DNA from: Candidatus Rokuibacteriota bacterium
GTDB lineage: Bacteria > Methylomirabilota > Methylomirabilia > Rokubacteriales > CSP1-6
Reading direction: 5' to 3'
NCBI GenBank assembly: GCA_016184365.1
Contig: JACPCW010000075.1
Span: 81,617-145,616 of the forward strand
Length of the DNA stretch: 64,000 nucleotides
Made by a program: the position numbers and the translations under genes. The notes below the pieces were generated by a model. It did not search any database, was not told where the DNA came from, and saw nothing but the letters and a program-made list of their open reading frames with translations. Shown here piece by piece: positions 16,874 to 52,374 of the stretch. The first letter of the stretch is position 1. Every line of letters begins with the position of its first letter.

Positions 16874-17256
16874 TTCACTCCACAGGGACGTTCCAGCTGG
16901 AACGCGCGCTCCCCGAGCGCATCGAAATGGTGCGGATCGGGATGAAAGAGCATCGTGCCTGGCCGGTACTCGCGGCCACCGATCCGAAACGTTCCCTCGA
17001 GGATGTACCAGATCTGCGCGAAGTCGTGGTAGTGCAGCGGATGATGCGCGCCCGGCTCAAGGCGCAGGATGCCCGCGTTGGGCTCGGTCGGCCGCTCCGG
17101 CCGAGGATGAAAGAGCATCTTTCCGGTCTCTCCCGGCCAGCGAATCGTCTCCCATTCCAACTCGTCGCGGTGACGTGCTTCCATCGGCTGATGTTCCGCG
17201 AATTTTGGATCGGTGGCCACGGTGACCTCCTCGTGCAGGGATGGGGACCGTAGCAT
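16843..17256 (-). CDS. cupin domain protein
   Basis: GAHHPLHYHDFAQIWYILEGTFRIGG is a cupin motif; GGGAG lies 5 nt upstream of the ATG. It overlaps the convergent TTC38 gene by 31 nt. Confidence 0.55.
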   Translation of the reverse strand: MLRSPSLHEEVTVATDPKFAEHQPMEARHRDELEWETIRWPGETGKMLFHPRPERPTEPNAGILRLEPGAHHPLHYHDFAQIWYILEGTFRIGGREYRPGTMLFHPDPHHFDALGERAFQLERPCGVNYPTPRRFFQ

Positions 17257-17390
17257 CACTCCCGGTGGCGCGTGGTGACAGCCGAACTCCGTCGCGAATG
17301 CTCTCTGACGCCGAACGCCGCCGTTCACCTGCGCGCGGCGCTCTGGCCGCGCGTCCGCTGAACGCCGAAGTTGGACCGCTGACAGGCCTC

Positions 17391-17615
17391 TCAGCGACGA
17401 TCAAGCAGTTCCTCGACGGTAATCCCGATGTCGCGCGCGATCTTCCGCAGCAACGTCGGTGAGATGTCGCGTCCAGGATGGAAGGGGACAGTCGTTCCGC
17501 GCCCGTCAGGATGCCTGAACTGTCGATGCGACCCGCGCTGGCGCACGCCGACGAACCCCAGCCGCTCAAGCAGCGCGGCGACTTCGCGCGGCTTGAGGAC
17601 TGGGATCGCCCCCAC
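17391..17615 (-). CDS. hicA: HicA toxin (mRNA interferase)
   Basis: KPREVAALLERLGFVGVRQRGSHRQFRHPDGRGTTVPFH is the HicA consensus. Confidence 0.75.
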   Translation of the reverse strand: MGAIPVLKPREVAALLERLGFVGVRQRGSHRQFRHPDGRGTTVPFHPGRDISPTLLRKIARDIGITVEELLDRR

Positions 17616-17618
17616 CCG

Positions 17619-17828
17619 CTACGCCACCTGGATCGTCTGGATGCCGACGAACTCGGACTCGAGTTTTGGCTCGCCATCCTCGAGGAGCATCTCGACAACC
17701 TCCTGAAGATTCCGCCGCAACTCGTCAAGACCTTCGCCTTGACTGTGAGCACCCGGCCAGCCCGGGACGTAGCCGACGTACATGCCCGTGTCGGGGTCTC
17801 GCTCAACTACGATGTTGAAGGTGCGCAT
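17619..17828 (-). CDS. hicB: HicB-like antitoxin (UPF0150)
   Basis: MRTFNIVVERDPDTGMYVGYVPGWPGAHSQGEGLDELRRNLQEVVEMLLEDG, immediately upstream of hicA. Confidence 0.65.
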   Translation of the reverse strand: MRTFNIVVERDPDTGMYVGYVPGWPGAHSQGEGLDELRRNLQEVVEMLLEDGEPKLESEFVGIQTIQVA

Positions 17829-17895
17829 CGTTCGGACTCCTTCCGTCGATCCTACTCTGAAGCTCGCATCCGTTGTCGGCCCAACACCCGGTCGG

Positions 17896-18438
17896 TCATT
17901 TCGGAACCCCCGGGGCACGCATCACGCTTTCGATCTGCTGCCGATGGAGGTCAAGGTGGAATCGCACAAACGCTAACCACTGACGCGCATCCCAGGGGCC
18001 GGAGATTGGATGCGGCGTGATTACTTCAACTGGGTCGAGGCCCGCGAGCGCGACCGGCAGCGCCTCAAGCAACGGCTGATTGCATTGGATAGCGACGACC
18101 CAGTAATCGAGTGGCCCACGGCGCCTGGGAGTCGCGATGTCGGGGGCCTGCTGCCGTGGCACCCACGTCTCGGCTACGATCTGCTCGATCGACTTCCCGC
18201 GATGAATCGGTTCGTCAGTCCAGACCGGCTGCCCTCGACGCAGACCCTCGGCCGCAGCCCAAACACGGTTGATCGATCCCTGTTCCGCGAGTACCAAGTG
18301 CTCGACGTTCTCAGCGATTGACCACTCCCCGGGGTCAGGGTTGAAGGCGCCCTGCACCGACGACAGGGCACGGATTCGGTCGCGCAGCCGGGCGCGCGCA
18401 TCGGTCGCTGCGGAAATCAGTTCAGCGATGTCTCCCAT
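17896..18438 (-). CDS. DinB/YfiT-like (DinB_2) four-helix-bundle metalloenzyme family protein
   Basis: SIAENVEHLVLAE…WVVAIQCNQ…HLDLHRQQI pattern. The start is chosen at MGDIAEL. Confidence 0.5.
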   Translation of the reverse strand: MGDIAELISAATDARARLRDRIRALSSVQGAFNPDPGEWSIAENVEHLVLAEQGSINRVWAAAEGLRRGQPVWTDEPIHRGKSIEQIVAETWVPRQQAPDIATPRRRGPLDYWVVAIQCNQPLLEALPVALAGLDPVEVITPHPISGPWDARQWLAFVRFHLDLHRQQIESVMRAPGVPK

Positions 18439-18479
18439 GATCTCCTCGCCACGGCGCCCAAGCTGCCGAACGCCCGCGG

Positions 18480-18809
18480 TCACCGGCCGGAGCGAGCAAC
18501 GCGAGCCCCGGCCCGGTGCACTGCGTGGTTCGGCGATCGCCGCCTCACGCGGCGCTTGGTCGTGGGTTTCGTCTCGGGTGGCAGCTTGTACAGCGTCTCA
18601 GGGGCAATGTCCGCGCCGTTCGGCCATGCGACCGTTCCCGCGACGGGATCGAGCATGACGCGCGCGAAAACGGCGGGATCACGAAGAGGCTCGAAGACGG
18701 GACCTTCGAGCAAGGGAAGAAGGTTCACCTGTTTCCGCTTCCCGTCCTTGAACTTGACGGTCAGCGAATACGGTCCAACGACTTCAATCCCGACAACTCG
18801 CCATTTCAT
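18480..18809 (-). CDS. DUF2442 domain protein
   Basis: MKWRVVGIEVVGPYSLTVKFKDGKRKQVNLLPLLEGPVFEPLRDPAVFARV; AGGAG RBS before the ATG. Confidence 0.6.
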   Translation of the reverse strand: MKWRVVGIEVVGPYSLTVKFKDGKRKQVNLLPLLEGPVFEPLRDPAVFARVMLDPVAGTVAWPNGADIAPETLYKLPPETKPTTKRRVRRRSPNHAVHRAGARVARSGR

Positions 18810-18820
18810 GGTGTCGCTCC

Positions 18821-19081
18821 TCACGCCAGCGGCCGAATCCTCTGCAAAGGACGATTGGTGCGCGCCAGTTCCCAATCGTGTTCAAGCGCGTCTCGATGGA
18901 GCTTGCCCCACGTCCTGACGAGCGCAAGAGCCCGCGGTGGCAAGCGACCTTCCAGGACCCGGAGGCTCTGAATCGAGATCACCGCCTCCTGTCCGCCGTA
19001 GATCGCGTGGAAGTGCGGAACCCCGTGATCCCGGTAGTACATGTAGATCACGATGCCGTAGAACTCCGAGATCCTTGGCAT
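18821..19081 (-). CDS. DUF4160 domain protein (partner of DUF2442)
   Basis: MPRISEFYGIVIYMYYRDHGVPHFHAIYGGQEAVISI; adjacent to and upstream of the DUF2442 gene. Confidence 0.6.
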   Translation of the reverse strand: MPRISEFYGIVIYMYYRDHGVPHFHAIYGGQEAVISIQSLRVLEGRLPPRALALVRTWGKLHRDALEHDWELARTNRPLQRIRPLA

Positions 19082-19434
19082 TCGTCCTCACGACTCGTGA
19101 GAGGGTTGAAGTCCGGTCGCCCACTGGGATAGCGTCGCCGAACTAGAAGTCGGTCGTGAGATTGACCGGTCAATGTATCGAGGCACAACCTGCGCGGCAG
19201 TGTCGCTCATCCGCTGGTGTGCACGCCGGCTTGCCTCAGCATATGTCCTTGTTTCGCCGGTGATTTCATGCGATCCGAGTGCCTCGACGGCCTGAGCGCT
19301 CGCCGAAGGGTGGTGCGGGATATCCGGTCGGCCTATTTCGTCGCACTTCCGGGGATTATGCGGCCCCACGCGTTTCCGGCGCGCGGCCGAGCTGGCCGGC
19401 CCCGCTTGCGCAGGACTGGCCGCGCTCCTCGAAT

Positions 19435-29288: not shown

Positions 29289-30188
29289 GTGATGATTCAC
29301 GTCCGTATTCCGGCGACGAGCGCGAATCTCGGGCCGGGATTCGACGCCCTCGGTCTGGCCCTCGCGCTCTACAACGAGGTCGAGGCGCGCGACGCCGATG
29401 CCGTGAGCGTCGCGATCGAAGGCCACGGCGCCGGCGACCTCGCGACGGACGCGCGCAACGTCGTCGTGCGCGGCGTGCGGCTCGCGCACGAGGCGGCGGG
29501 CCGCCCGTTCAAGGGCGTGGCGCTCCGATGCGTGAACCGCATTCCGGCGTCGCGGGGGCTCGGGTCGAGCGCGGCGGCGTGGGTCGGCGGCCTGGTCGCC
29601 GGCAACGCGCTCCTCGGCGGAACGCTCGACCGCGACGCGCTGCTGGCGCTCGCGACACGAAGCGAAGGTCACCCGGACAACGTCGCCGCGGCGCTCCACG
29701 GTGGACTCACCGTGTCGTGCCTCGAGGGCGACGCCGTGCGCGCGATCGCGTTGCCGGTGCCGCCGGCGCTCACGTGGGTCGCGCTGATTCCCGAAGTGCG
29801 GAGCGCGACGGCGGAGGCGCGCGCGGTGCTGCCGGCCACCGTTCCGCGCAGCGACGCGATCTTCAACGTGCAGCGTGTCGCGCTGCTGCTCGCGTCCTTG
29901 AGCGCCGGCCGGTTCGAGATGCTCGCGACGGCGCTCGACGACCGGCTGCACCAGCCATATCGGCTGAAGCTCTTTCCGTGGATGCCCGCGGTGGCCGACG
30001 CGGCGCGCGCGGCCGGCGCGGCCGGCTGCGTGCTGAGCGGCGCGGGACCATCGCTGCTCGCCGTGGTTGCCGGCGACGGCACCGCCGTGGCCCGCGCGAT
30101 GGAAGCGGCGCTCGGGGCCGCGCGGATCCAGGGCTCGGCGCACGCGTTCGACGTCGACACCGCGGGGGCAACGGTGAGGGAGGTATGA
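29289..30188 (+). CDS. thrB: homoserine kinase
   Basis: IPATSANLGPGFDALGLAL…PASRGLGSSAAA are GHMP-kinase and ThrB motifs. Confidence 0.8.
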   Translation: MMIHVRIPATSANLGPGFDALGLALALYNEVEARDADAVSVAIEGHGAGDLATDARNVVVRGVRLAHEAAGRPFKGVALRCVNRIPASRGLGSSAAAWVGGLVAGNALLGGTLDRDALLALATRSEGHPDNVAAALHGGLTVSCLEGDAVRAIALPVPPALTWVALIPEVRSATAEARAVLPATVPRSDAIFNVQRVALLLASLSAGRFEMLATALDDRLHQPYRLKLFPWMPAVADAARAAGAAGCVLSGAGPSLLAVVAGDGTAVARAMEAALGAARIQGSAHAFDVDTAGATVREV

Positions 30189-31321
30189 CGGCGACGCGCG
30201 GCGTGCTCGCCTACCAGGAGCTCAAGGCGGCGGTCGCGCAGGGCTGGCTCGTGGCCGGCGCGCCGATCGACGAGCGCCAGTTCCAGCCCGCGAGCCTCGA
30301 TCTCCGGCTCGGCCCCGTCGCGTATCAGCTGCGCGCGAGCTTCCTGCCGTTCCGCGAGACGGTCGAGCGTCGGCTCGTCCATCCCGACGCCGTCGACGTG
30401 GACCTCGTGATCGACCGGCTTTCGCTCGACACGGGCGCGACGCTGCAGCGGCGCTCCGTGTATCTCATCCCGCTCATGGAATCGCTCGCGCTGCCGCCCC
30501 ACGTGCGCGGCCGGACGAATCCGAAATCGACGACCGGCCGGCTCGACATCTTCACGCGCGTGATCACCGACGGCACGCCGCGGTTCGACGAGATTCGCGC
30601 CGGCTATCACGGGCCGCTCTATCTCGAGGTGTCGCCGCAGTCGTTCCCCGTGCGCGTGCACGCCGGCCTGTCGCTGAACCAGCTGCGCCTGTCCTCAGGT
30701 ACGGCCGCGATGTCGGACGCCGACCTCGCCGCGCTGTATCGCGAGTCCCCGCTGCTCTACGACGACGACGATCAGCCGGTCCCGCTCGATCGCGTGGCGT
30801 TCAACGACGGGCTCGGCATGGGCGTCGATCTCTCGGGACGGACGAGCGACGGCATCATCGGGTACCGCGCGCAGCCGAATCCGCCCCTCGTCGACCTGGC
30901 GCGCGTGGGCTTCTATGCGGTCGACGAGTTCTGGGAACCGATCAAGCGGCCGGCGCGCGACTCGTACATCCTCGAAGCGGATCGGTTTTACATCCTCGCG
31001 TCGAAGGAACGAATCCGGGTGCCCCCCGATTACGCTGCTGAGATGGTGGTCTACGATGCGGGCGCCGGCGAGATCCGAACGCACTACGCCGGGTTCTTCG
31101 ATCCCGGGTTCGGGTACGGCGACGGCAGCGTGCTGGGCACGAAAATCGTGATGGAGGTGCGTGCGCGCGAGGTGCCGTTCATGCTCTACGACGGTCAGAC
31201 GTCGTTCAAGGTCTGGTTCGAGCGTCTGTCGAGCCGACCCGAGCGCCTGTACGGGGAGGGGCTCGGATCGTCTTATCAATATCAGACGCTCACGCTATCC
31301 AAACAGTTCAAGCGGACGTGA
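30185..31321 (+). CDS. 2'-deoxycytidine 5'-triphosphate deaminase-like protein (long-form dCTP deaminase/dUTPase fold)
   Basis: 378 aa; SLDLRLG…GRTNPKSTTGRLDIFTR. GAGGGAGG RBS and ATGA overlap with thrB. Confidence 0.6.
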   Translation: MTATRGVLAYQELKAAVAQGWLVAGAPIDERQFQPASLDLRLGPVAYQLRASFLPFRETVERRLVHPDAVDVDLVIDRLSLDTGATLQRRSVYLIPLMESLALPPHVRGRTNPKSTTGRLDIFTRVITDGTPRFDEIRAGYHGPLYLEVSPQSFPVRVHAGLSLNQLRLSSGTAAMSDADLAALYRESPLLYDDDDQPVPLDRVAFNDGLGMGVDLSGRTSDGIIGYRAQPNPPLVDLARVGFYAVDEFWEPIKRPARDSYILEADRFYILASKERIRVPPDYAAEMVVYDAGAGEIRTHYAGFFDPGFGYGDGSVLGTKIVMEVRAREVPFMLYDGQTSFKVWFERLSSRPERLYGEGLGSSYQYQTLTLSKQFKRT

Positions 31322-31482
31322 CGGCGTGCCATAACGTCGCGGTATCCCGACATTGCGAACCGGCAACCGTCTTGCACGATGATAGACTTCGGATAGGGGC
31401 GGCAGAACGAAGCCGCGAGGCGAGTCTGTGAGGGTGGCGACAACCGCCGCACCACACGGTCCGGTGCCCGATGGAGGGCAAG

Positions 31483-31683
31483 ATGGCTGAGCAGAAGCGT
31501 AAAGAGACGCGACCCACGAAGCCCGCCGAAGGCGGAGACGCCGCCGCCGGCAACGCCGAGATCGCCAAGAAGGGCAAGAAGATCAAGGAAGACATCGACA
31601 AGCTGCTGGACGAAATCGACGACATCCTCGAGGAGAACGCCGAGGAATTCGTCAAGAGCTACGTCCAGCGAGGTGGCGAGTAG
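31483..31683 (+). CDS. pup: prokaryotic ubiquitin-like protein Pup (C-terminal GGE)
   Basis: …DIDKLLDEIDDILEENAEEFVKSYVQRGGE is near-identical in pattern to the actinobacterial Pup C-terminal half. GGAGGG lies 5 nt before the ATG; an alternative ATG is at 31471. Confidence 0.75.
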   Translation: MAEQKRKETRPTKPAEGGDAAAGNAEIAKKGKKIKEDIDKLLDEIDDILEENAEEFVKSYVQRGGE

Positions 31684-31686
31684 TCG

Positions 31687-31902
31687 ATGCCGATCTACGA
31701 ATATCGTTGCCGCAGCTGTCAGGGTGATTTCGAGAAGTACGTGCACACGACCGGGACGGCCGTCGCCTGTCCGTCCTGCGCGAGCGACAACGTAATGCGC
31801 AAGCTCTCGGTGTTCGGCCTTCGCAGCGACGGCGGCTCCGTCGCGTCCATGCCCATGGGCGGAGGCGGCGGGTGCTGCGGCGGCGGGTGCGGCTGCCACT
31901 GA
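31687..31902 (+). CDS. FmdB-family zinc-ribbon protein
   Basis: MPIYEYRCRSCQGDFE…CPSCAS… with a Gly/Cys-rich tail. Confidence 0.65.
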   Translation: MPIYEYRCRSCQGDFEKYVHTTGTAVACPSCASDNVMRKLSVFGLRSDGGSVASMPMGGGGGCCGGGCGCH

Positions 31903-31928: not shown

Positions 31929-31964
31929 CGCCACGGGCCCCCCGCGGGGCCCGTGGCATTTTCA
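31929..31964 (+). terminator. rho-independent terminator after the FmdB-family gene
   Basis: gccacgggcccc-ccgc-ggggcccgtggc hairpin followed by ATTTTC. Confidence 0.5.
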
Positions 31965-32047
31965 GGCGTACAATCCGCCCCGATGGATGGGCGAAGCCGC
32001 AGCACGACGCGTAGCCGCAGGCGGAGCGGGTGCGAGGCGAGTCTGTG

Positions 32048-32965
32048 ATGGACCTGCGCCGACTCGAAATCTTCGCCAAGGTCGCCGAGCTCGGCAGTTT
32101 CTCGCGCGCGGCCGAAGCGCTGTATCTCACGCAGCCGACCGTCTCCGAACACATCCGCGCGCTCGAAGACGAGCTCGGCGTGCAGCTGCTCGACCGGCTC
32201 GGGCGCGGCGCCGCGCCGACGCGCGCCGGCCAGCTCTTCCTCGGCTACGCGCACCGTCTGCTCGGTCTCGCCCGCGAAGCGCGTCAGGCGATCGACCAGT
32301 TCCAGGGCCGCATGAGCGGCGAGCTCGTCGTCGGCGGCAGCACGATTCCCGGTGAGTACGTGCTGCCGGCCCTGATCGGCGAGTTCAAGGGCAAGTACCC
32401 CGACATCCTCATCACGCTGGTGATCGGCGACAGCCGCCAGGTGATCGACTGGGTCGAGGAAGGCCGCGTCGAAGTCGGCGTCGTCGGCGCCCGCCCGACC
32501 GCCCGCACGCTCGAGTCACGGGAGCTCATGTCCGACGAGCTCGTCGTCGTCGTGCCGGCCGCGCACCCGTGGGCCGAGCGGGACGACGTCACGCTCGCCG
32601 AGCTGCAGGAACAGCCGCTCATCGTGCGCGAGCACGGGTCCGGCTCGCGCGACGCGATGGAGCGCGCGCTCGCCGAGGCCGGGCTCGATCTCGACGCGTT
32701 CCGCATCGCCGGCGAGATCGGCTCGACGCAGGCGATCAAGCAGGGCGTGCGCGCCGGCGTCGGTGTCGCGCTCATCTCGAAGCGCGCGGTGGAGGACGAG
32801 TGCCGCGCGCGGCTCCTCCGCTGCGTGAAGATCCGCGATTTCCGGGTGTCGCGCGCGTTCCATCTCGTCACGCATCGCGACCGCAGCCGGTCGCCGCTGG
32901 CGGTCGCGTTCCTCGAGTTCATCGAATCCCGGCTGCCGGGCGCGGCATCCCAATCAGCACGATGA
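32048..32965 (+). CDS. LysR-family transcriptional regulator
   Basis: MDLRRLEIFAKVAELGSFSRAAEALYLTQPTVSEHIRALE is an HTH LysR N-terminus. Confidence 0.8.
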   Translation: MDLRRLEIFAKVAELGSFSRAAEALYLTQPTVSEHIRALEDELGVQLLDRLGRGAAPTRAGQLFLGYAHRLLGLAREARQAIDQFQGRMSGELVVGGSTIPGEYVLPALIGEFKGKYPDILITLVIGDSRQVIDWVEEGRVEVGVVGARPTARTLESRELMSDELVVVVPAAHPWAERDDVTLAELQEQPLIVREHGSGSRDAMERALAEAGLDLDAFRIAGEIGSTQAIKQGVRAGVGVALISKRAVEDECRARLLRCVKIRDFRVSRAFHLVTHRDRSRSPLAVAFLEFIESRLPGAASQSAR

Positions 32966-34020
32966 CGGGAAAGGACATCCGCCTCACGTCGTACGCGTCC
33001 TGCGCCGGCTGAGCGTCCAAGATGGCTCCTGGAGATCTCCAGGAGGTGCTCGCGGTGCTCAAGCCGGCGGACCCCGCCGCGCATGAAGCATTGCTCGTCG
33101 GGCTCGGCCGCGCGGACGACGCGGCGGTGTATCGGCTGGCGCCCGATCTCGCGATCGTCGAAACGGTGGACTTCTTTCCGCCGGTCGTCGACGACGCGTA
33201 CACGTGGGGCGCGATCGCGGCGGCCAACGCGATGTCGGACGTCTACGCGATGGGCGGGCAGGTGCTCTTCGCCCTCGCGATCGCCGGCTTTCCGCGTGAG
33301 CTGCCGAAGGCCGTCATCAGGGAAGTCTTCCGCGGCGGCGCGGAGAAGGTCGCCGAGGCCGGCGGCGTCATCGCCGGCGGTCACACCGTCGTCGACAACG
33401 AGCCGAAGTACGGTCTCTGCGTCACCGGGCGCGTGCATCCCGACCGCGTGCTGACGAAGGGCGGCCTGCGGGCCGGCGACCGGTTGTTCCTGTCGAAGCC
33501 GCTCGGCACGGGGGTCATCACGACGGGCGCGAAGAACGACGTCGCGAGCGCCGACGTCCTCGACGGCGCCGTGCAGAGCATGCTGCGGCTCAACCGCGTG
33601 GCGGCGGAGGTTGCGTGCGAACGCGGCGCGCATGGCGCGACGGACATCACCGGCTTCGGTCTGCTCGGCCATCTCGGCGAGATGGTGGAAGCCTCGGGTG
33701 TCGGCGCCATCATCCGAGCCTCGCGGCTGCCCGTTCTGCCAGGCGCGCTCGCGCTCGCGGAGCAGGGGCAGTTCAGCGGCGGGATGAAACGGAACCGGCG
33801 CCACGTCGATGCGGTGTTCGGTCCGCGGCTCACCGTCGACGCGTCGGTGCCCGAGGTCGTCGCCTCGCTGGCCGCCGAATCCGAGACGTCGGGCGGGCTG
33901 CTGTTTTCCGTCGCGCCCGCCGAAGCGTCACGGGTGCTCGACGACTTCGCGAAACGCGGCGAGGAGTGCTTCGAGATCGGCGAAGTCATCGCCGATCGCG
34001 CCATCCGCCTCCTCGCCTGA
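32962..34020 (+). CDS. selD: selenide, water dikinase (selenophosphate synthetase), Sec-containing form with UGA at codon 17
   Basis: From ATG 32962 the frame reads MTGKDIRLTSYASCAG-TGA-ASK and continues, with no frame change, into ORF 33022..34020, which has a SelD/AIR-synthase-like body. The TGA falls in the conserved Cys/Sec position. ATGA overlap with the lysR stop. Confidence 0.7.
33025..33044 (+). other. candidate SECIS hairpin for selD (perfect palindrome CTCCTGGA-GATC-TCCAGGAG)
   Basis: 8-bp stem and 4-nt GAUC loop, 12 nt downstream of the in-frame UGA. Confidence 0.4.
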
Positions 34021-34110: not shown

Positions 34111-34166
34111 ACGCTTGGCCCGTATCTAAAGGCACATTGCGCAATCCACTGTCCTGGGGGCATCGA

Positions 34167-35027
34167 ATGCGTCGCCTTCTTGCGCTGGTCCTGGTGTTCT
34201 GTGCGGTCGCAGCTCCGGCCGTCGTCTCCGCGGACAAGCCGGACGTGCTCCGGATCTCCGCCATTCCGGACGAGAACCCGAACGAGCTGATGCGGATCTA
34301 CACGCCGTTCGCCGAGTACCTCGCGAAGGAGCTCGGCATGAAGGTGCAGTTCACGCCTGTCGTCGATTACGCGGCGACCGTCGAAGGGCTCGCCGCGAAG
34401 AAGCTCGACCTCGTGTGGTACGGCGGGTTCACGTCGGTTCAGGCGGTGAAGCGCACGAGCGGCAGCGCGAAGCGGCTCATCCTTCGTCAGGAAGACGCCG
34501 AGTTCAAATCGGTCTTCGTGGCGAAGCCGGGCTCCGGCATCAGGACGCTCGCCGACCTGAAGGGCAAGAGCTTCGCGTTCGGCTCGGTGTCCTCGACGTC
34601 GGGACACCTGATGCCGCGCTACTTCCTGCTGAAGTCCGGTGTCGCGCCCGATCGTGAATTCAAGCGGATCGCGTTCTCCGGCGCGCACGACGCGACGGCG
34701 CTCTGGGTGGAATCCGGAAAGGTGGACGCCGGCGCGCTCAACTTCCTCGTGTGGGAGAAGCTCGTCCAGCAGAAGAAGGTCGACGTCGGCAAGGTCGACG
34801 TGTTCTACACCACGCCGCCGTACGTCGACTACGTCTGGACCGCGCGTGGCGATCTGGACCGCGGCGTTACCGACAAGCTCGTCGCCGCGTTCCTGAAGCT
34901 CGACTACGCGAATGCCGAGCATCGGAGGCTCCTCGACCTCCACCGGACGAAGAAGTACATCCGCGCCAACGATGCCGACTGGAAGAGCATCGAAGAGGCG
35001 GCCGTCGAGGCCGGACTCCTGAAGTAA
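34167..35027 (+). CDS. phnD: phosphonate ABC transporter substrate-binding protein
   Basis: Signal peptide MRRLLALVLVFCAVAAPAVVSA followed by a PhnD-like body (…YGGFTSVQA…SGH…). The ORF reports an in-frame TTG at 34137. Confidence 0.75.
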   Translation: MRRLLALVLVFCAVAAPAVVSADKPDVLRISAIPDENPNELMRIYTPFAEYLAKELGMKVQFTPVVDYAATVEGLAAKKLDLVWYGGFTSVQAVKRTSGSAKRLILRQEDAEFKSVFVAKPGSGIRTLADLKGKSFAFGSVSSTSGHLMPRYFLLKSGVAPDREFKRIAFSGAHDATALWVESGKVDAGALNFLVWEKLVQQKKVDVGKVDVFYTTPPYVDYVWTARGDLDRGVTDKLVAAFLKLDYANAEHRRLLDLHRTKKYIRANDADWKSIEEAAVEAGLLK

Positions 35028-35036
35028 GGGTTCGCG

Positions 35037-35861
35037 GTGTACCGGCTTCGCGAGATCACGAAGGTCTTCGGCCGCGAGACGTCCGCCCTCGACGGCGTCA
35101 CGCTGCACGTGGCCCCGGGCGAGCACGTCGCGGTCATCGGCCCGAGCGGGGCGGGGAAGACCACGCTGTTCCGGCTGCTGAACCTGGCGCTGCGGCCGAC
35201 GTCCGGCTCGCTGCGCTTCGAAGGCGCCGACGTCGCGACCCTGTCCGACGCCGCGCTGCGGCAGGCACGGACGCGCATCGGCACGATCTACCAGCAGCAG
35301 AACCTCGTCGGCCGCCTGCGTGTCGTCCACAACGTGCTCGCCGGCCATCTCGGCCGGTGGTCGACGGCGGCGGCGCTCGCGTCGCTCGTCCGGCCGCGCG
35401 AGGTCGAGACGGCGAGCGCCGCGCTCGCGCGCGTGGGCATCGGCGAGAAGCTCTACGCGCGAACCGACGAGCTCTCCGGCGGCCAGCAGCAGCGGGTCGC
35501 GATCGCGCGGGTGCTCGTGCAGGATCCGGACGTCGTGCTCGCCGACGAGCCGGTGTCGTCGGTCGATCCCTCGCTCGCGGTGACGCTCATCACGCTCCTC
35601 CGCGATCTCTCGGACGAATCGCGGAAGACGCTGCTCGTGAACCTGCACAGCGTCGACCTGGCGCTGTCGTTCTTCCCTCGCATCGTCGGGGTGCGCGCCG
35701 GCCGTGTCGCGTTCGATCTCCCGCCGGACCGCGTCACGGTGGATCTGCTCGAAGCGCTGTATGCCGGCGATCGCGACGACGAGGCGCAGCTCGAACGCCT
35801 GAGAGATGGCTACGATCCCTTCGGACGCGCCTGTCGCCCGCTCACTGGCTTCCGACCGTAA
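35037..35861 (+). CDS. phnC: phosphonate ABC transporter ATP-binding protein
   Basis: Walker A GPSGAGKTT, signature LSGGQQQRV, Walker B VVLADEP. Confidence 0.8.
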   Translation: MYRLREITKVFGRETSALDGVTLHVAPGEHVAVIGPSGAGKTTLFRLLNLALRPTSGSLRFEGADVATLSDAALRQARTRIGTIYQQQNLVGRLRVVHNVLAGHLGRWSTAAALASLVRPREVETASAALARVGIGEKLYARTDELSGGQQQRVAIARVLVQDPDVVLADEPVSSVDPSLAVTLITLLRDLSDESRKTLLVNLHSVDLALSFFPRIVGVRAGRVAFDLPPDRVTVDLLEALYAGDRDDEAQLERLRDGYDPFGRACRPLTGFRP

Positions 35862-36672
35862 GTCGGGTTTTCCCTGGCTGCTCGCGGTTGCGTTCGCGCT
35901 GACGCTCGTCGGCTCGCTGCGCGTCGCGGAGGTCGATCCGCGGCTGCTCGTCGAGCGTGACGCGCTCGCCAACGTCGGCCGGTTCGTGGCCGGCGCGTGG
36001 CCGCCGCGCGTCTCCGCCGAGTTCCTCGGTCTCATGGCGCGTCCCGTCGCCGAGACGATCCAGATCTCCGTCACCGGAACGCTCTTCGCCGTCCTGATCG
36101 GGTTCCCGCTCGGGATCCTCGCGACGTCGACGCTCATGTGGCGCGGCGTGCTGCACGAGCGCCGCGTGCAGCGCCGGCGCTGGCTGCTCGGGCTGCCGGT
36201 CTACGCGGTCGCGCGCGCCCTGCTGTCGGTGTTCCGTGCGATCCCCGAATACGTCTGGGCCTTCATGTTCGTGCGCGCCGTCGGGCTGGGTCCGTTTCCC
36301 GGGGTCCTCGCGATCGGCATCGCGTACGGCGGCATGCTCGGCAAGGTCTATTCCGAGATTCTCGAGAGCGTCGACCCGCGACCGCTCGAGACGTTGCAGG
36401 CCGCGGGCGCCTCGCGCATGGCCGTCGTGTTCTATGGCCTCGTCCCGCAGGCGCTGCCGACGTTCGTGTCGTACACGCTGTACCGCTGGGAGTGCGCGAT
36501 CCGTGCCTCGGCGATCCTCGGCTTCGTCGGCGCCGGCGGGCTCGGGCAGCAGATCGAGCTGTCGATGCGGATGTTCCAGTTCGACGAGGTCCTGACGCTG
36601 CTCGCGACGCTCTTCGTCCTGGTCGCGCTCGTGGATTTCATCAGCGGTCGCCTGCGCGCGAGGCTCCTGTGA
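35806..36672 (+). CDS. phnE: phosphonate ABC transporter permease
   Basis: PhnE-like membrane protein. The start is uncertain because it overlaps the phnC 3' end. Confidence 0.7.
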   Translation: MATIPSDAPVARSLASDRKSGFPWLLAVAFALTLVGSLRVAEVDPRLLVERDALANVGRFVAGAWPPRVSAEFLGLMARPVAETIQISVTGTLFAVLIGFPLGILATSTLMWRGVLHERRVQRRRWLLGLPVYAVARALLSVFRAIPEYVWAFMFVRAVGLGPFPGVLAIGIAYGGMLGKVYSEILESVDPRPLETLQAAGASRMAVVFYGLVPQALPTFVSYTLYRWECAIRASAILGFVGAGGLGQQIELSMRMFQFDEVLTLLATLFVLVALVDFISGRLRARLL

Positions 36673-37911: not shown

Positions 37912-38964
37912 ATGGCTCCCTCTGTGGCGCTGCTGACGCCGTTCGCATTTCCGTCGCTTCGGGGGAATGCGGTGACGGTGGAGCGCATCGCCCGCGGCCT
38001 CGCCGAGCGTGGCGTCGCGCTGCGCGTGTGGGACCTGTCGGCGACGGGGGAGTCGCGCGTCGCCGAGGAGGTCGATGCCGGGCGCCCGGCGCTCATTCAC
38101 GCGTTCCACGCCTGGCGCGTCGGGCCGCTCGCGCTGCGCGTGGCGCGACGGCTCGAGGTCCCGCTGATCGTGACGCTGACCGGCACCGACGCGAACCACG
38201 ATCTCTTCGATCCGGACCGCGCCGCCGTCGTCCGCCGCGTGCTCGAGGGGGCGGCGGCCATCGTCGTCTTTCACGACTCGGTCGGCGCGCGCGTCGCGGC
38301 CGCGCTGCCGGACGTCGCCGCGCGCCTCGTCGTCATCCCGCAGGCCGCCACGCTCCGGACGGAACCGTACGAGCTCGCCGCGCGTTGGGACCTGCCGGAG
38401 GACCGCGTCCTGTTCCTGTTCGCGGGAGGCATCCGACCGGTCAAGCGTCCGCGCTTTCCGTTGCGGCCGTTCGCGCAGCTCGTGGAACGCCACCCGCGCG
38501 CGCGTCTCGCGTACGCCGGACCGGTGCTCGATCGGATCGAGGGCGAGGCGCTGATGCGCGAGCTGGAGGGCCGCGGATGGGCGCGATACCTCGGCGCCGT
38601 GCCGCACGGGCAGATGGCGTCATTGTTGCGGGCAGCCGACGTCGTCGTGAACTGCTCCGAGTCGGAAGGTGGGATGGCGAACGCAATTCTCGAGGCGTTC
38701 GCCGTCGGTCGCGCCATGCTGGCCGCCGATATCCCCGGCAATCGCTCACTCGTTCAGCACGACGTGACGGGCCTGCTGTTTTCTGATGCAGGAACTTTCT
38801 TGGCCGGCGCCGAGCGGCTGACGACGGATTCCGCGCTGCGGGACCGTCTGGGACGCGCCGGACGTCAGCGTGTGGAGCGGGATCACCCACCCGGGCGCGA
38901 AATCGACGACTATCTGGCCCTGTATCGCCGTTTCGTTGCCGTGCCGGCGGGCCGCGCGTGTTGA
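37912..38964 (+). CDS. glycosyltransferase family 4 (GT-B)
   Basis: A C-terminal EGGMANAILEAFAVGRAMLAADIPG (E-x7-E type) motif. Confidence 0.75.
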   Translation: MAPSVALLTPFAFPSLRGNAVTVERIARGLAERGVALRVWDLSATGESRVAEEVDAGRPALIHAFHAWRVGPLALRVARRLEVPLIVTLTGTDANHDLFDPDRAAVVRRVLEGAAAIVVFHDSVGARVAAALPDVAARLVVIPQAATLRTEPYELAARWDLPEDRVLFLFAGGIRPVKRPRFPLRPFAQLVERHPRARLAYAGPVLDRIEGEALMRELEGRGWARYLGAVPHGQMASLLRAADVVVNCSESEGGMANAILEAFAVGRAMLAADIPGNRSLVQHDVTGLLFSDAGTFLAGAERLTTDSALRDRLGRAGRQRVERDHPPGREIDDYLALYRRFVAVPAGRAC

Positions 38965-39046
38965 CGCATGTACGGGTGGGTTCGATAATGCGAATGACAG
39001 TGACGTCTCGTTCATCGTTCGCCAGCCTCGGCGAGAGGAGACCCGG

Positions 39047-40060
<1,014 letters not shown>

Positions 40061-40074
40061 CCCGGGAGGGTCCG

Positions 40075-41520
40075 ATGTCGCACACCGAAGCGCTTGACCG
40101 GCTCGTACGCCAGGTCGTGAGCCAGGTGCGGTGGCGGCGGGCGGAGCACTACGCGCTCCGCGGGCTCTTCTGGGGCCTCGTCGTCGCCGTCGTGCTGCTG
40201 CTCGTGAAAGGACCGCTCGCCGTCTGGGCGGCTCCGTTCGGCATCGCGGCGATCGCCGCCGGTGCGCTCGGCGGTCTGCTCTACGGCTTCGTCCGGCGCG
40301 TCGGTCCGCTCGACGCCGCGCGCCTCGCGGACCGCGCGTTCGGCCTCGCCGACCGCGTGACGACGGCGCTCGAGTGCGCGAAGCGACCCGAGGCCGGTCC
40401 GATGATCCAGTCCCTGCTCGCGGATGCGGGCGCGCGCGTCGGGCAGCTGAAGATCAGGCAGATCGTCCGGCGCGTCGTGCCGCGCGAGGCGAAGCTGCTG
40501 CCGGTACCGCTGATCGCCGCGGTCGTGCTCGCGCTCGCGCCGCCGGTGCCGATGCCGTCCGGCCGGCTGTTCGACACCACGGCGTCGACGGCGGAAGACG
40601 AGACCAAGGAGCGGGTCGCGTCGACGATGCTCGAAGACCGGGCGCGGCCGATGCCGCGCGACCCGATGCGGCGGCCGTCGTTCGAGGAGCGGGACTACAT
40701 GCAGCGCGGCGCGTCCGGCGCGCCGTCCGCGCAGGGCGACCTCGCCGCGATCTTCAAGGACACGTCGCTCGCGAGCCAGCGGCCGGACTTCAACAGCTTC
40801 CTCAAGAAGGGCGACGAGCGTCTCAAGATGCTCGAGCAGGTCGACCGTCTGCCGGACCTCCAGTCCGACTTCACCCAGAGCCAGTACAAGATGGTCTTCC
40901 GCAAGTCGAAGGCGCTCCGCGGCGGCATGCGTCCGGATCAGATCTCGCCCGACAAGCTGCGCGAGCTGCTGCAGGAGATGGAGCGGCTCGGGCGCAAGGG
41001 CAATCAGAACTGGTCGCAGGACGCGATGGAAGGCATGGACGCGCTCGAGGGCGGCAACCAGGACAAGGCGCTCGAGGCGATGGAGAAGGCGCTCAACAAG
41101 ATGCGCGCCTCCGAGGAAGCGAGGCGCTCGGGCAAGAACCTGCGCGGCGGGAAAGACGATCGCGCGAGCCGCGGCGACGGGACGCGCGGCAGCGGCGGCC
41201 CCGAGGACCAGGACTTCGGCGAGGGCGAAGGCATGATGCCCGGCAAGGGCCGCAGCCCGTCACCGAAGGGCGACGCCACGCAGCGCCTGCGCGCGAATCC
41301 GTTCGACGCCGGCGTCGAAGGCGAATCGCGCCGCGGTCGCAAGGACGGCTACGACACGAACATGACCGGCCGCGGCGGCAAGATGGAATCGCGGATGCAG
41401 TACCTCGGCGTCATCGGCCAGTACCGCAAGATGATGGAGGACTCGATCGCGCGCGAGCAGGTGCCTCGCGACTTCCACGGCCAGATCAAGGACTACTTCC
41501 AGTCGCTGGACGAGCGCTAG
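40075..41520 (+). CDS. hypothetical membrane-anchored, charged/coiled-coil protein in the MoxR operon
   Basis: N-terminal TM helices followed by a low-complexity, K/E/R-rich region. Confidence 0.45.
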   Translation: MSHTEALDRLVRQVVSQVRWRRAEHYALRGLFWGLVVAVVLLLVKGPLAVWAAPFGIAAIAAGALGGLLYGFVRRVGPLDAARLADRAFGLADRVTTALECAKRPEAGPMIQSLLADAGARVGQLKIRQIVRRVVPREAKLLPVPLIAAVVLALAPPVPMPSGRLFDTTASTAEDETKERVASTMLEDRARPMPRDPMRRPSFEERDYMQRGASGAPSAQGDLAAIFKDTSLASQRPDFNSFLKKGDERLKMLEQVDRLPDLQSDFTQSQYKMVFRKSKALRGGMRPDQISPDKLRELLQEMERLGRKGNQNWSQDAMEGMDALEGGNQDKALEAMEKALNKMRASEEARRSGKNLRGGKDDRASRGDGTRGSGGPEDQDFGEGEGMMPGKGRSPSPKGDATQRLRANPFDAGVEGESRRGRKDGYDTNMTGRGGKMESRMQYLGVIGQYRKMMEDSIAREQVPRDFHGQIKDYFQSLDER

Positions 41521-41522
41521 AC

Positions 41523-42413
41523 GTGCCCGCCCTCGACCGTCAGACGCTGTTCGCGCCAGAGTTCCTGGCGCAGCTCGAGCGCCTGTCGCTCGCCTCGCGG
41601 CGCGTGTTCCGCGGCCGGGTGAAAGGCGAGCGCAAGAGCCCGCGGCGCGGGCACAGCGTCGAGTTCTGCGACTACCGCGCGTATGGCGTGGGCGACGACC
41701 TGCGCTACGTCGACTGGAACATCTACGGGCGCCTCGATCGCCTCCACGTGAAGGTGTTCGTCGACGAGGAAGACCTCTGCCAGCACCTGCTCGTCGATGC
41801 GTCGGCCTCGATGGACTTCGGGCGCCCGACGAAGTTCGAGTACGCCGCGAAGCTCGCGGCCGCGCTCGGCTTCATCGGCCTCGTGAACCTCGAGCGCGTC
41901 GGCGTCGGCATCCTGAAGGAGCGCGGCGGGGAGGGCTGGGCGCCCACGCGCGGCCGGAACCAGTTCGGTCCGCTGGTCGATTTCCTCGCGCGCGTGAAGC
42001 CCGACGGCGCCACGCGGCTGAACGACGCGATCACCGGCTACGCGATGCGCTCGCGCGAGCCCGGCCTGGCCGTCGTCGTGTCGGATCTGCTCGATCCGCT
42101 CGGCTTCGAAGCCGGCATCCGCGCGCTGCTCGAGCGGCGCTTCGACGTGCACGTCATCCATCTCCTCGATCCGCAGGAGGTCAATCCCGAGTTCGGCGGT
42201 GACCTGCGCCTGATCGACGCCGAGACCGGCGAGCCCCGGGAGATCACCGTCGACGGGGAGGCCATCCGCGCCTACCGCGAGCGTCTCCACCAGTTCCTCG
42301 AGCGCGTCGAGACGTTCTGCCGTACGCGTGAGCTCGGCTACCACCGCGTCATCACGGACACGCCGGCCGAGGAATTCGTGCTGGCGCAGCTGAAGGGCCT
42401 CGTCCTGACATGA
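41523..42413 (+). CDS. DUF58 (vWA-like) protein of MoxR operons
   Basis: …RRGHSVEFCDYRAYGVGDDLRYVDWN… is the DUF58 hallmark. GTG start. Confidence 0.75.
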   Translation: MPALDRQTLFAPEFLAQLERLSLASRRVFRGRVKGERKSPRRGHSVEFCDYRAYGVGDDLRYVDWNIYGRLDRLHVKVFVDEEDLCQHLLVDASASMDFGRPTKFEYAAKLAAALGFIGLVNLERVGVGILKERGGEGWAPTRGRNQFGPLVDFLARVKPDGATRLNDAITGYAMRSREPGLAVVVSDLLDPLGFEAGIRALLERRFDVHVIHLLDPQEVNPEFGGDLRLIDAETGEPREITVDGEAIRAYRERLHQFLERVETFCRTRELGYHRVITDTPAEEFVLAQLKGLVLT

Positions 42414-45400
42414 GTTTCCTGTCACCGATCGCCTTCGCGGTCTTCGCGCTCTCGCTGCCGCTCGTGCTGCTGTACTTCCTCAAGGTGCGGCGGCGCGAAC
42501 GGCGCGTGCCGAGCCTGTTCCTCTGGGGCTCGGAGCTGCGCGACCGCGAGGCCTCCGCGTTCTTCCAGCGCCTGCAGCGCGACCCGCTGCTGCTCCTCCA
42601 GGTGCTCGCGCTGCTGATGCTGTCGCTCGCGCTCGCGCGGCCGGCGCTCACGGTCATGGGGGTCGGCGCGCAGAAGGTCGTCGTCGTGCTCGACGCGTCG
42701 GCGTCGATGAAATCCCGCGACGTCGCGCCGTCGCGATTCGCCGTCGCGCGGAGCGAGGCGGTGTCGCTCGTGTCGCGGCTCGGCGAGGGCGCCGAGGTGA
42801 TGGTCATCGAGGCGGGCGTGCAGCCGCGCGTGATCGTCCCGCTCGGCCGCGACCGCGACCGCGCGATCGCCGGGATCCGTGCCATGCACGCGCGCGACCT
42901 GCCGAACCGGCTGACCGAGGCCGTGCGCACGGCCCGCGCGCTGGTCGGCGACGATCCGCGCGCGCAGATCCACGTCTTCACGGACGGCGCCTACACGCTG
43001 GCCGAGTCGCCGGAGACGTCGGACGGCCGGATCCGCTGGGTCGGCATCGGACGCGGCGGCCACAACGTCGGCATCACGAATCTCGCCGTCCGGAAGACGT
43101 ATTACGGGACGTTCGACCACCAGGCCTTCGTCTCGCTCGTGAACTACACGGCGGAGACGCAGACCTTCAGCTTCAAGATCGAGGTCGGCGACGGCGTCAT
43201 CGCGGAGAAGTCCGTGACCCTCGAGCCGAGCGTCCGGCGCTCGGTCGTCGTTCCGTTCAGCCACAACGGTGGCGGCACGGTGACGGCGCGTCTCAGCGTG
43301 TCGGACGACCTCGAGGCCGACAACGTCGCGTGGGCCGTGCTGCCGCCGACGCGGAAGATCAAGGTTCACCTCGTCAGTCCGGGCAACCTGTTCCTCGAAA
43401 AAGTCCTCAAGACGGACCCGCAGGTCGAGTACGAGGTGAAGACGCCCGAGGAGTACCAGGGCGGGATGGGCGAGGCCGACGTCGTCATCATCGACTCCGT
43501 CAACCCGACGCGCGTGGGCCCCGGCCGGTTCGTGTTCGTGAACGGCGTGCCGTCCGACGTGCCCCTCGAGCTCCTCGGCCGCATGGAGCGTCCGACGATC
43601 ATGGACTGGGACCGGAAGCATCCGGTCATGCGCCACGTCGAGTTCGCCAAGGTCGCCATCGAGGAAGCGGTGCGCATGCGGCCGCTCGCCGCCGGCCGCT
43701 CGCTCGTCGAGGCCGTTGGCGGCCCGCTGATCTACGCGCTCGAGGAAGCCGACCGCAAGGCCGTGTTCGTCGGCTTCGATCTGTTCAAGACGGACTTCCC
43801 GCTGCGCGTGGCGTTCCCGCTGATCCTGTCGAACTCGCTGCGCTGGCTGCATCCAGCCGGTCTCGACCAGACGAGCCTGCAGCTCGCGTCGGGCCAGCCG
43901 ATCCTGGTGCCCGTCGAGCACGGCGTGAGCACGGTGACCGTCAGCACCCCGCGCGGGCGCTCCGTGAAGGGACAGGTCACGCGGGGCGTGGTGTCCTTCA
44001 CGGAGACCGACGAGGTCGGCGTCTACACGCTCGCGACGGCCAAGGGCGACATCCGCATCGCCGTCAACCTGATGGACGCCGACGAATCCAACGTCGCGCC
44101 GCGGCCGTTGCCGGCGCACGCCCAGGCGACGCCGGCGGCGTCCGCGCCCCTGCCGATCCAGCGTGAGCTGTGGCCCCTGTTCGTGATGCTCGCCGCCGCG
44201 CTCCTCGCGCTCGAGGGCTTCCTCTACTGGCGGCGGCAGGCCGGCGGCCGGCTCCGCGTGCCGGCGAACATGTCGGACCGCTGGGCCCTCGGTCTGCGCA
44301 CGGCGCTGGTCGTGATCCTGCTCGCCACGCTGGCGCGTCCGACCGTGCCGCGCTGGGTCGACCGCATGAACGTGATGTTCCTGCTCGACGTGTCGGACAG
44401 CGTGAGCCTCGCCGCCCGCGAGCGCGCGTGGCGGTTCGTGAACGAAGCCGCGAAGCACATGAAGCCCGGTGACAAGAACGGCGTGGTCGTCTTCGGCGAG
44501 CACGCCGTGGTCGATCAGTCGCTCGCGAATCGCGGCGCGCCGGACCGGCCGAAGGCGGAGATCGGCGGCCGCGGCACCAACCTCTTCCAGGGGCTGCAGC
44601 TGGCGCTCGCGAGTCTCGCGCCGGGGCAGGCGAACCGCATCGTCATGCTGACGGACGGTCGCCAGAACGCCGGGAACGCACTCTCCGCGGCGCAGGCGGC
44701 GAAGAACGCGGCGATCGACGTCCATTACGTCGCCGCGCCGCTGACGTTCTCCCAGGAAGTCGTCGCCGAGGCGATGGTCCTGCCGCAGGAAGTGAAGTTC
44801 GGCGAGCCGTTCCAGGCGAAGGTCGTCGCCTGGAGCCTCAAGGACACGCAGGGGCGCCTGTCGCTCTTCCGGAACGGCGAGTTCCTCGGATCGCAGGTCG
44901 TCCGCCTGTCGGCCGGCAAGAACGTCTTCAGCTATCGGCAGTCGCTCGACTCGAGCGGCATCCACGTCTACCAGGCGGCGCTCGAGATCGAGGGCGACAC
45001 GATCGAGGACAACAACCGCGCGGTCGGTACCGTCGTCGTGCGCGGCCGGCCGCAGGTGCTGATCGCGGACAAGGACAAGAGCCACGCCGGCTCGCTGGCG
45101 GCTGCGCTTCGCTCGCAGAACATCGACGTGACGGTCGTCGAGCCGTCCGGGATTCCGCAAGACCTCGCCGGCCTGCAGAAGTACGACGGGCTGATCCTGT
45201 CGAACGTCTCGTCGCTGAAGCTGACGCGTCCGCAGATGGGCCACATCCGCGACTACGTCCGCGAGCACGGCGGTGGACTGATGATGCTCGGCGGCGAGGA
45301 GAGCTTCGGTCTCGGCGGCTACTACCGCACGCCGATCGAGGAAGCGCTGCCCGTCACGATGGAGGTCAAGCAAAAGGTCGAGATCCCGAGCCTCGCGGTC

Positions 45401-46790
45401 GTGCTGTCGATCGACCGGTCCGGCTCGATGGCGATGTCGACGGACGAGAAGATCACGAAGCTCGATCTCGCGAAGGAGGCCGCGCACCTCGTCGTCGATC
45501 TGCTCGACGAGCGCAACGAGGTCGGCGTCCAGAGCTGGGACACCGAGTTCCTCTGGGACGTCGGGATCCGGTCCGCGCGCGACAAGCAGGCGATCCATCA
45601 CGCGATCGCGACGGTGAAGGCCGGCGGCGGTACCGACGGCTATCCGGCGCTGAAGGACTCGTACGCGCAGCTGTTCGAGCGCCCGGCGCTGCTCAAGCAC
45701 GTGATCTTCCTGTCCGACGGCCAGATGACGCGCGGTGATTTCGCCGGGCTCCTGCGCCGCATGGTGAAGGACAAGATCACCGTCTCGAGCGTCGCGATCG
45801 GCAAGGACGCGGACGTGCCGCTGATGGTCGACATCGCGAAGTGGGGGCGCCTACTACACGGAAGACTCGCAGACGATTCCGCGCATCTTCACGCTGGAGA
45901 CGCAGCTCGCGTCCAAGGCGTCGCTGATCGAGCAGCCGTTCAAGCCGCAGCTCACCGCACCCGGGCACGAGGCGATGCAGGATATCGACTGGAAAGCCGT
46001 GCCGCCGCTCGGCGGCTACGTCGCGGCGACCGTGAAGTCGACCGCGGAGCTCGTGCTGATGAGCCACCAGGAAGACCCCGTCCTGGCGACCTGGCGCTAC
46101 GGCCTCGGCCGCACCGTCGCGTTCACGTCCGACGCGAAAGCGAAGTGGGGCGTGCTCTGGCTCCGGTGGCGCGACTTCAACAAGTTCTGGGCGCAGCTGA
46201 CGCGGTGGACGCTCCGCAGCGGCACCCGGAGTGACACCGTCGCGCGCGTGGATCGCCGCGACGAGGTCGGCGAGGTCATCGTCGACGCGGTCGACGGCAA
46301 GGGCGATTTCATCAACTTCCTCGACTCCCAGGTCGGGGTCGTCGCGCCGGACCGCGAGCGCACGGTGATCGATCTGGAGCAGGTGGGACCCGGCCGGTAT
46401 CGCGGGCGGTTCCCGGCGCCGAAGGAAGGCGTGTACCTCGTGGGCATGGCGCAGCGCCGCGGCGAGCGGGTCGTCGGCTCGCAGCTCGCGGGGCTGGTGG
46501 TACCGTATGCGCAGGAACTCCGGGACCTCGGCGTGGACGAGGTCCTCCTGAAGGAGATGGCGGACCTGACGGGCGGCACCGCGGTGGCGGACCCGAAGGA
46601 CGTCTTCCTCAAGGCGCGGCGGCAGTCGAGGATCGCGGTCGAGATCTGGCCGTGGCTCGTCGGGCTGGTCGCGCTCATGATGCTCCCCGAGATCGCGATT
46701 CGACGCCTCGGCGGCGGCGTGATCAGCTCCCTGATCGCACGCTTCGGCAGCCGACGTGGCGGCGAGCCCGGACGGGAGGAACGCGCATGA
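42410..46790 (+). CDS. giant BatA/BatB-like protein with three vWA domains; reading frame broken at poly-G 45843-45847 (sequencing error or authentic frameshift/pseudogene)
   Basis: ORF 42410..46234 encodes N-terminal TM helices (BatA-like) and vWA domains (VVVLDASASM, MFLLDVSDSV, VVLSIDRSGSM). After …DIAKWG the protein continues in ORF 45975..46790's frame (…YYTEDSQTIPRIFTLETQL…). Confidence 0.55.

Positions 46791-51147: not shown

Positions 51148-52374
<1,227 letters not shown>

Follow-up and report, generated by a model that had tools for sequence, protein, structure and literature searches.

The window studied here is a stretch of 64,000 nucleotides (64 kb) from a Candidatus Rokuibacteriota bacterium (contig JACPCW010000075.1). 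Near its middle lies pup, the gene for the ubiquitin-like tag protein Pup, which is followed directly by a gene for a small zinc-ribbon protein of the FmdB family. Here we describe this pair of genes, its conservation among related genomes and the separate locus at which the enzymes of the Pup-proteasome system are found in the lineage. We also discuss what this arrangement may mean for the order Rokubacteriales.

The pup gene and its zinc-ribbon partner

The full 66-residue translation of the pup gene is MAEQKRKETRPTKPAEGGDAAAGNAEIAKKGKKIKEDIDKLLDEIDDILEENAEEFVKSYVQRGGE. It passes both curated Pup models, PF05639 (E 3.6e-22, 79.5 bits; cut-off 27) and TIGR03687 (63.2 bits; cut-off 41.45), and its size and its QRGGE terminus are typical of Pup, which has about 60-70 residues and ends in GG[E/Q]. 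Chains of Mycobacterium tuberculosis Pup were matched by phmmer in the structures 3M9D, 7PX9 (Mpa), 7OY3 (Dop) and 4BJR (PafA), and residues 29-66, the segment which aligns with Pup complexed with Mpa, Dop and PafA, are the predicted binding segment. The preliminary description of this DNA had called the Pup homologue unmistakable, and the two models and the structural matches agree with it. A protein with 100% identity to the window Pup (P0001), encoded in a metagenome-assembled genome (MAG), is annotated at NCBI as 'ubiquitin-like protein Pup [Candidatus Rokubacteria bacterium]', and the closest 120 listed of 1,271 Pup relatives are close Rokubacteria-type Pups. A tblastn search of Pup against plasmids gave no match.

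The ratio of nonsynonymous to synonymous substitution rates (dN/dS) of pup, taken over the last 40 codons of 81 distinct related DNA sequences, is 0.07, which indicates strong purifying selection, and the gene is therefore real and not a chance open reading frame (ORF). Among the relatives the binding segment for PafA, Dop and Mpa hardly varies, and the terminus is GGE in 54 and GGQ in 31 of them; the window Pup already carries a C-terminal glutamate and hence does not need deamidation. The N-terminal half of the Rokubacterial protein (31483-31600 in the window) is lysine-rich, with segments such as QKKKETRPTKP and KKGKKIK, where its actinobacterial counterpart is acidic. So many lysines within the tag could allow Pup-on-Pup chains or self-modification.

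The second protein of the pair was assigned to the FmdB family by PF09723 (E 1.2e-12, 48.1 bits; cut-off 34.4) and TIGR02605 (51.4 bits; cut-off 31.3). Its cysteine pairs, C8xxC11 and C28PxC31, lie in an N-terminal ribbon of about 40 residues, and its C-terminal tail in the window is GGGCCGGGCGCH. Both CxxC pairs are conserved among the relatives, the second one (CPxC) being kept in all 83 intact copies, and a fixed tail GGGCCGGGC[GSA]CH (CCGGG..C.CH) is found in 80 of these 83. The dN/dS over its N-terminal codons is 0.29, that is, moderate purifying selection. The N-terminal pattern MPxYEYxCxxC ... CPxC is shared with the FmdB (CxxC_CxxC_SSSS) family and scores above its cut-offs, and what sets the Rokubacterial copies apart from the family at large is their fixed tail and their fixed place after pup. 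In the window 3 nt separate the pup stop codon from the zinc-ribbon ATG, which bears out the earlier reading that the FmdB-type gene begins 4 nt past pup.

For the survey of related loci, one genome per GTDB species was scanned and 238 were found to carry a Rokubacteria-type pup. The best 80 of these 238, almost all of them MAGs of Rokubacteria, Rokuibacteriota or Methylomirabilota, were taken together with seven further contig loci, which gave 87 loci with a total of 1.28 Mb. The zinc-ribbon gene lies directly 3' of pup in all 84 assessable loci, and in the remaining three the contig ends just past pup. The gap from the pup stop to the zinc-ribbon start is 0-5 nt in 71/85. The outer neighbours vary: across the 87 loci a dCTP deaminase gene (DCD) is found in 66, a LysR gene in 78 and a SelD gene in 71, and as only 66/87 loci have DCD upstream, its linkage to pup is not obligatory. 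No homologue of PafA, Dop, Mpa or PrcAB was found within 10 kb of pup in the 87 loci. The comparison of pup neighbourhoods in related taxa, proposed in the preliminary description, returned a solitary pup with a zinc-ribbon gene in all the assessable loci. From this pairing, the varying outer neighbours and the selection on the genes it follows that pup and the zinc-ribbon gene form an autonomous two-gene unit which is order-wide and not a local accident.

Signals of expression were also looked for around the pair (Table 1). The sequence GGAGG is present in 74/85 of the related pup upstream regions. TGnTAnA[AC]T matches 37 of the 85 distinct upstream regions, where shuffled sequences would give 0.3, and TAGAAT is present in 50 of them. 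A generic sigma-70 promoter scan called nothing in the region upstream of pup, and the promoter-like element is a tentative assignment suggested by its conservation. Downstream of the zinc-ribbon gene, the hairpin is likely to be the end of the transcript, although a strict terminator scan did not call it, the T run being of 4 T only. The zinc-ribbon gene is probably co-transcribed with pup and co-translation of the two is probable; the tight linkage is evidence of co-expression only.

In the records P0083 (...QRGGE-QS-MPIYEYRC...) and P0065 (...QRGGE-KL-MPIYDHRC...), one record each, Pup and the zinc-ribbon protein are fused by read-through. These may be sequencing errors; if they are real, the C-terminal glutamate, which must be free for ligation, would be buried.

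A direct repeat of 20 nt, GCGAGGCGAGTCTGTGA(G/T)GG, was seen at 31415-31434 in the 5' leader of pup and at 32032-32051 over the LysR start codon, and a second short repeat, CCCGATGGA(G/T)GG, at 31467 and 31979. The 20-nt repeat was dropped as a regulatory motif: none of the other 84 pup upstream regions has it, so it is genome-specific.

Table 1. Features of the pup locus and its flanks in the window
Feature	Position (strand)	Details
pup	31483..31683 (+)	ATG 31483 to TAG 31681-31683; 66 aa; starts MAEQK; C-terminus YVQRGGE
FmdB-family zinc ribbon	31687..31902 (+)	71 aa; PF09723, TIGR02605
Shine-Dalgarno GGAGGG	31473..31478 (+)	4 nt 5' of pup ATG; read from sequence
Extended -10-like element TGATAGACT (tentative)	31380..31388 (+)	94 nt upstream of pup ATG
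Hairpin GCCACGGGCCCC / GGGGCCCGTGGC	31930..31957 (+)	perfect 12-bp GC-rich inverted repeat I4, 100% complementary; 4-nt loop; then ATTTTC
Two-domain dCTP deaminase (flank, outside module)	30185..31321 (+)	ATG 30185; DCD_N + DCD_C; NF005734 440 bits
Selenium-metabolism LysR regulator (flank, outside module)	32048..32965 (+)	NF040786 309.5 bits vs 250
SelD (flank, outside module)	33022..34020 (+)	TIGR00476 331 bits vs 125

Enzyme clusters without pup in the lineage

The window itself was searched with seeds which across the searches came from Nitrospira, Leptospirillum, Actinobacteria and Rokubacteria. Five PafA seeds in six-frame tblastn reached a best E of 1.2 over the 64 kb. The actinobacterial Mpa, Dop, PrcB, PrcA, PafA, PafB and PafC gave no match at E<=1e-3, and the Rokubacterial Mpa, Dop, PrcB, PrcA and PafA likewise had no match in the window. 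Pfam scans of 38 window ORFs found no Pup_ligase, Proteasome or Prot_ATP_ID_OB domain. Within the window there is no PafA or Dop up to 31 kb on either side of pup, so that the absence of dop, pafA and proteasome genes, first noted for the near surroundings, extends to the whole stretch.

The enzymes were then tracked in other genomes. An alignment in the supplement of Hecht et al. 2020 (PMC7947786) provided the PafA seeds, and a first profile search of a set of 5.8 billion proteins gave only Actinobacteria and Nitrospira among the best 120 matches listed. One 'intermediate' PafA match, P0228, was followed up and proved to belong to a canonical actinobacterial cluster; its locus then supplied seeds for Mpa, Dop and PrcAB and served as the positive control. 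When cluster representatives were searched exhaustively, the divergent solitary PafA P0250/P0391 came up, and the search with P0391 reached a tier of 451-residue PafA proteins annotated at NCBI as 'Pup--protein ligase' from Candidatus Rokubacteria, Rokuibacteriota, Methylomirabilia and Methylomirabilota.

All five Rokubacterial PafA loci which were looked up have the order mpa-dop-prcB-prcA-pafA, with neither pup nor the zinc-ribbon gene inside the cluster and with no pafB or pafC (WYL) after pafA. In one of the enzyme loci (L094) the start codon of prcB comes immediately after the stop codon of dop. The five clusters have a GC content of 0.65-0.69, and their tetranucleotide composition correlates with that of the Rokubacterial pup loci at r 0.87-0.89, compared with 0.70-0.71 for the actinobacterial control locus. 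In these relatives, outside the window, Mpa ends in TGQYL in 5/5 clusters and so carries the 20S-docking motif GQYL, and PrcB of the Rokubacteria-type clusters retains the propeptide-GTTV context of the active site. Both kinds of locus are present in one MAG, JBIOTN01 ('Candidatus Rokuibacteriota bacterium isolate MAG159'), with the pup-zinc-ribbon pair on JBIOTN010000190.1 (L071) and the enzyme cluster on JBIOTN010000004.1 (L102). All five proteins of this cluster (proteasome ATPase, Dop, 20S beta, 20S alpha and PafA) score above their NCBIfam equivalog cut-offs.

A quantitative count was done by a metagenome scan with the Rokubacterial PafA and then by local tblastn, where a cluster was taken as Rokubacteria-type if its PafA was at least 80% identical to the query. 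None of the 14 distinct Rokubacteria-type clusters has a pup anywhere in the locus. In the other clusters, mostly actinobacterial and with PafA 60-63% identical, pup lies directly after dop in 31/31. The pup loci and the enzyme clusters of the lineage therefore complement each other. In L097-L099 a 66-aa ORF follows pafA; examined as a candidate second pup, it proved to be unrelated.

Some contigs of lower GC content (0.62-0.64) carry pafA alone (L090-L092, L117-L121 and L123). Their PafA is 84-86% identical to the Rokubacterial query in L117-L121 and L123, and 57-60% identical to the Rokubacterial tier in L090-L092. On those long enough (L090-L092, L120 and L121) no dop, mpa or prcAB was found in the 8-10 kb upstream of pafA. 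The dispersal of Pup-system genes may go further in some related lineages.

Interpretation and alternative explanations

We consider it very probable (about 0.85) that the pup of the window is a functional Rokubacterial gene which has moved out of the Pup-proteasome cluster, while the enzymes are encoded at a separate mpa-dop-prcB-prcA-pafA locus, and this applies to the order Rokubacteriales of the phylum Methylomirabilota. One system is split between two loci, with the tag gene as one half and the enzyme cluster as the half that completes it. The mixture of GGE and GGQ ends among the relatives fits an active Dop deamidase. A terminal glutamine is usable only after deamidation by Dop, and this together with the near-invariant binding segment argues that the enzymes must exist.

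The mode of action can be sketched from work on M. tuberculosis and Corynebacterium glutamicum (reviewed in PMC3511204 and PMC8223512). The pup gene and the zinc-ribbon gene would be expressed as a small operon of their own, with the promoter-like element, the Shine-Dalgarno sequence and the hairpin, and given a separate promoter the supply of Pup could be adjusted independently of the enzymes. PafA with ATP would activate Pup-GGE at the gamma-carboxylate of its C-terminal glutamate and ligate it to lysines of the substrate. The GGQ-ending Pups of relatives would be deamidated first by Dop, which would also strip Pup from substrates. The conserved C-terminal half KIKEDIDKLLDEIDDILEENAEEFVKSYVQRGG would fold onto the coiled coil of Mpa, and the C-terminal GQYL of Mpa would dock on the 20S PrcAB core, into which the tagged protein would be threaded.

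Some points weigh against this explanation. For the window's own genome, PafA, Dop, Mpa and PrcAB are predicted from relatives. The link of both loci within the same genome rests on one MAG, and the binning of MAGs can err. The solitary pafA of the lower-GC relatives means that gene content may vary within the phylum.

Three other explanations were weighed. It is improbable, in our view, that Pup works here without a proteasome, in the manner of Corynebacterium, and serves only for regulation or for disassembly driven by an unfoldase. Corynebacterial pupylation without a proteasome is known (cited in PMC6466877), the 64-kb window has no proteasome genes, and in some lower-GC relatives the solitary pafA has no prcAB within 8-10 kb; however, prcB and prcA stand beside dop and pafA in the 14 distinct Rokubacteria-type clusters, the 20S alpha and beta proteins of L102 exceed their equivalog cut-offs, and the propeptide-GTTV of PrcB and the GQYL of Mpa are retained. 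The preliminary description had offered a proteasome-independent role of Pup as an alternative to a ligase and proteasome encoded elsewhere. Such a role is not needed, because the clade has 20S alpha and beta and an Mpa with GQYL, and the location elsewhere is supported by the pup-less clusters of the relatives and by JBIOTN01. Still less probable, to the point that we give it hardly any weight, is that the separation is an artefact of mis-binned contigs from different organisms, or that the solitary pup is a decaying relic. The data come entirely from MAGs and metagenome contigs, and binning errors do occur, since a few pup loci are filed under the unrelated taxa Binatia, Nitrosocosmicus, Nitrosotalea and Dormibacterota. 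Against this, pup is not decaying, as its low dN/dS and the conserved Shine-Dalgarno sequence and promoter-like box indicate; Rokubacterial MAG contigs of up to 3.3 Mb carry pup loci; the tetranucleotide signature and the GC content of the enzyme clusters are Rokubacteria-like; and it is the Rokubacterial clusters, 0/14 against 31/31 of the others, which are missing a pup of their own.

The remaining explanation concerns the zinc-ribbon protein, which could be a dedicated factor of the Rokubacterial Pup pathway that has so far gone unrecognised, gained as pup moved out of the cluster and co-translated with Pup. It might bind or regulate Pup or gate its use by PafA, Dop or Mpa: as a holder or chaperone of Pup, which is disordered, as an adaptor or regulator of one of these enzymes, or possibly as a switch which senses metal (zinc) or redox state through its Cys-rich tail. 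We regard such a role as rather unlikely, though clearly less so than the other two. The pair is never broken in the assessable loci while DCD, LysR and SelD vary around it, the short gaps suggest translational coupling, the hairpin closes the two-gene unit, and the protein itself is under selection with its CxxC pairs and its tail kept. The zinc-ribbon gene also goes with pup and not with the enzymes, because the pup-less clusters are without it. A pathway role would explain the joint exit of both genes and the order-wide invariance of the pair. Yet adjacency speaks for co-expression and not for interaction, and as every locus belongs to a single order, the linkage could go back to one accident that was inherited and preserved by the tight spacing. 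FmdB-family zinc ribbons are, moreover, widespread small proteins found in many phyla without Pup, and no reported link between the FmdB family and pupylation was found in the literature.

Other features of the window and relation to known Pup systems

The position of pup between a dCTP-deaminase-like gene and a LysR regulator, as first described, was confirmed by domain and NCBIfam matches (Table 1). LysR and SelD appear functionally unrelated to the pup pair, and they are followed by a phosphonate-type ABC transporter at 34137-36672. Further downstream, at 38870-48127, there is a block of the aerotolerance-operon type made up of MoxR ATPase, BatA/VWA (1,274 aa) and TPR genes; its MoxR product is an AAA protein but no proteasome ATPase, and in relatives a DUF58 gene is seen at the matching position. 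The block at 50672-55632 begins with an Rrf2-family regulator and ends with an Hsp70-family protein, with a class-V aminotransferase of the cysteine desulfurase type between them, and looks like iron-sulfur cluster assembly.

In the upstream part of the window, an ORF at 3735-4895 (+) joins a truncated FGE-sulfatase (residues 1-176) to a truncated RVT_1 domain (residues 163-330) and is followed by a PIN-domain gene at 5622-6008. The joined ORF looks like the remnant of a diversity-generating retroelement; as a retroelement of this kind it was rejected, with no template/variable repeat of at least 40 nt found in 2500-6200. At about 17000-19400 the GC content drops from about 0.70 to 0.64, and the ORFs are all short and lack the high GC at third positions that is usual here, so this stretch could be foreign or non-coding. 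Rfam and tRNA scans gave nothing in the window, including this stretch.

When compared with the actinobacterial system (mpa-dop-pup-prcB-prcA ... pafA in M. tuberculosis), the Rokubacterial MAG has the same five enzyme families. Rokubacterial Pup is about 80% identical to M. tuberculosis Pup over the last 26 residues and both end in GG[E/Q], and the GQYL of Mpa and the enzyme order mpa-dop-prcB-prcA-pafA are kept. The difference lies in the place of pup, which in Rokubacteria is not between dop and prcB but is unlinked and paired with the zinc-ribbon gene, while pafA follows directly after prcA and no pafB or pafC is seen. With Corynebacterium the system shares the GGE end of Pup and the fact that pupylation genes need no linkage to proteasome genes; it differs in that Rokubacteria keep prcA and prcB, so that pup is uncoupled from the enzymes and not pupylation from the proteasome. 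Nitrospirae also have a non-actinobacterial Pup system, and the Rokubacterial PafA has Nitrospira-like features, e.g. the DPMQL segment.

UBact is a small disordered tag with a C-terminal G[E/Q], found in non-actinobacterial bacteria that have PafA/Dop-like enzymes and proteasomes. An identity with UBact was rejected for the window protein, as it passes both curated Pup models; it also has the Pup motif LLDEIDD.LEENAE.FV and ends in GGE.

According to Iyer et al. 2008 (PMC2588565), pup lies 'invariably' next to a gene of the PafA family. This adjacency does not hold in the window, in the 87 related loci or in the 14 clusters. No paper on Pup or proteasomes in Rokubacteria was found, and nothing specific came up for Methylomirabilota; the only lead was one sentence of Hecht et al. 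2020 (PMC7947786), which notes PafA/Dop homologues in the candidate division NC10. In the clade studied here the system is not sporadic, with the Rokubacteria-type pup in 238 GTDB species genomes, and it appears to be general for Rokubacteriales.

The components are not new, since Pup and the Pup-protein ligase are already annotated by NCBI. What is new, and the novelty is modest, is the order-wide detachment of pup and its tight coupling to a zinc-ribbon gene; the system is ordinary in function and unusual in layout. Nearly all work on pupylation has been done in Actinobacteria, in which pup lies inside the enzyme and proteasome cluster. Here an abundant uncultured soil order has the full Pup-proteasome toolkit with the transcription of the tag gene uncoupled from that of the enzymes, and a separate promoter would imply independent control of the tag supply. 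Surveys which look for pup only beside pafA or dop would wrongly score Rokubacteria as lacking it, and in the reverse error a solitary pup would be taken for an orphan. As a candidate for a new accessory factor, the zinc-ribbon partner is cheap to test; if it is a bystander, what remains is a Pup system of the ordinary kind whose genes have been reordered.

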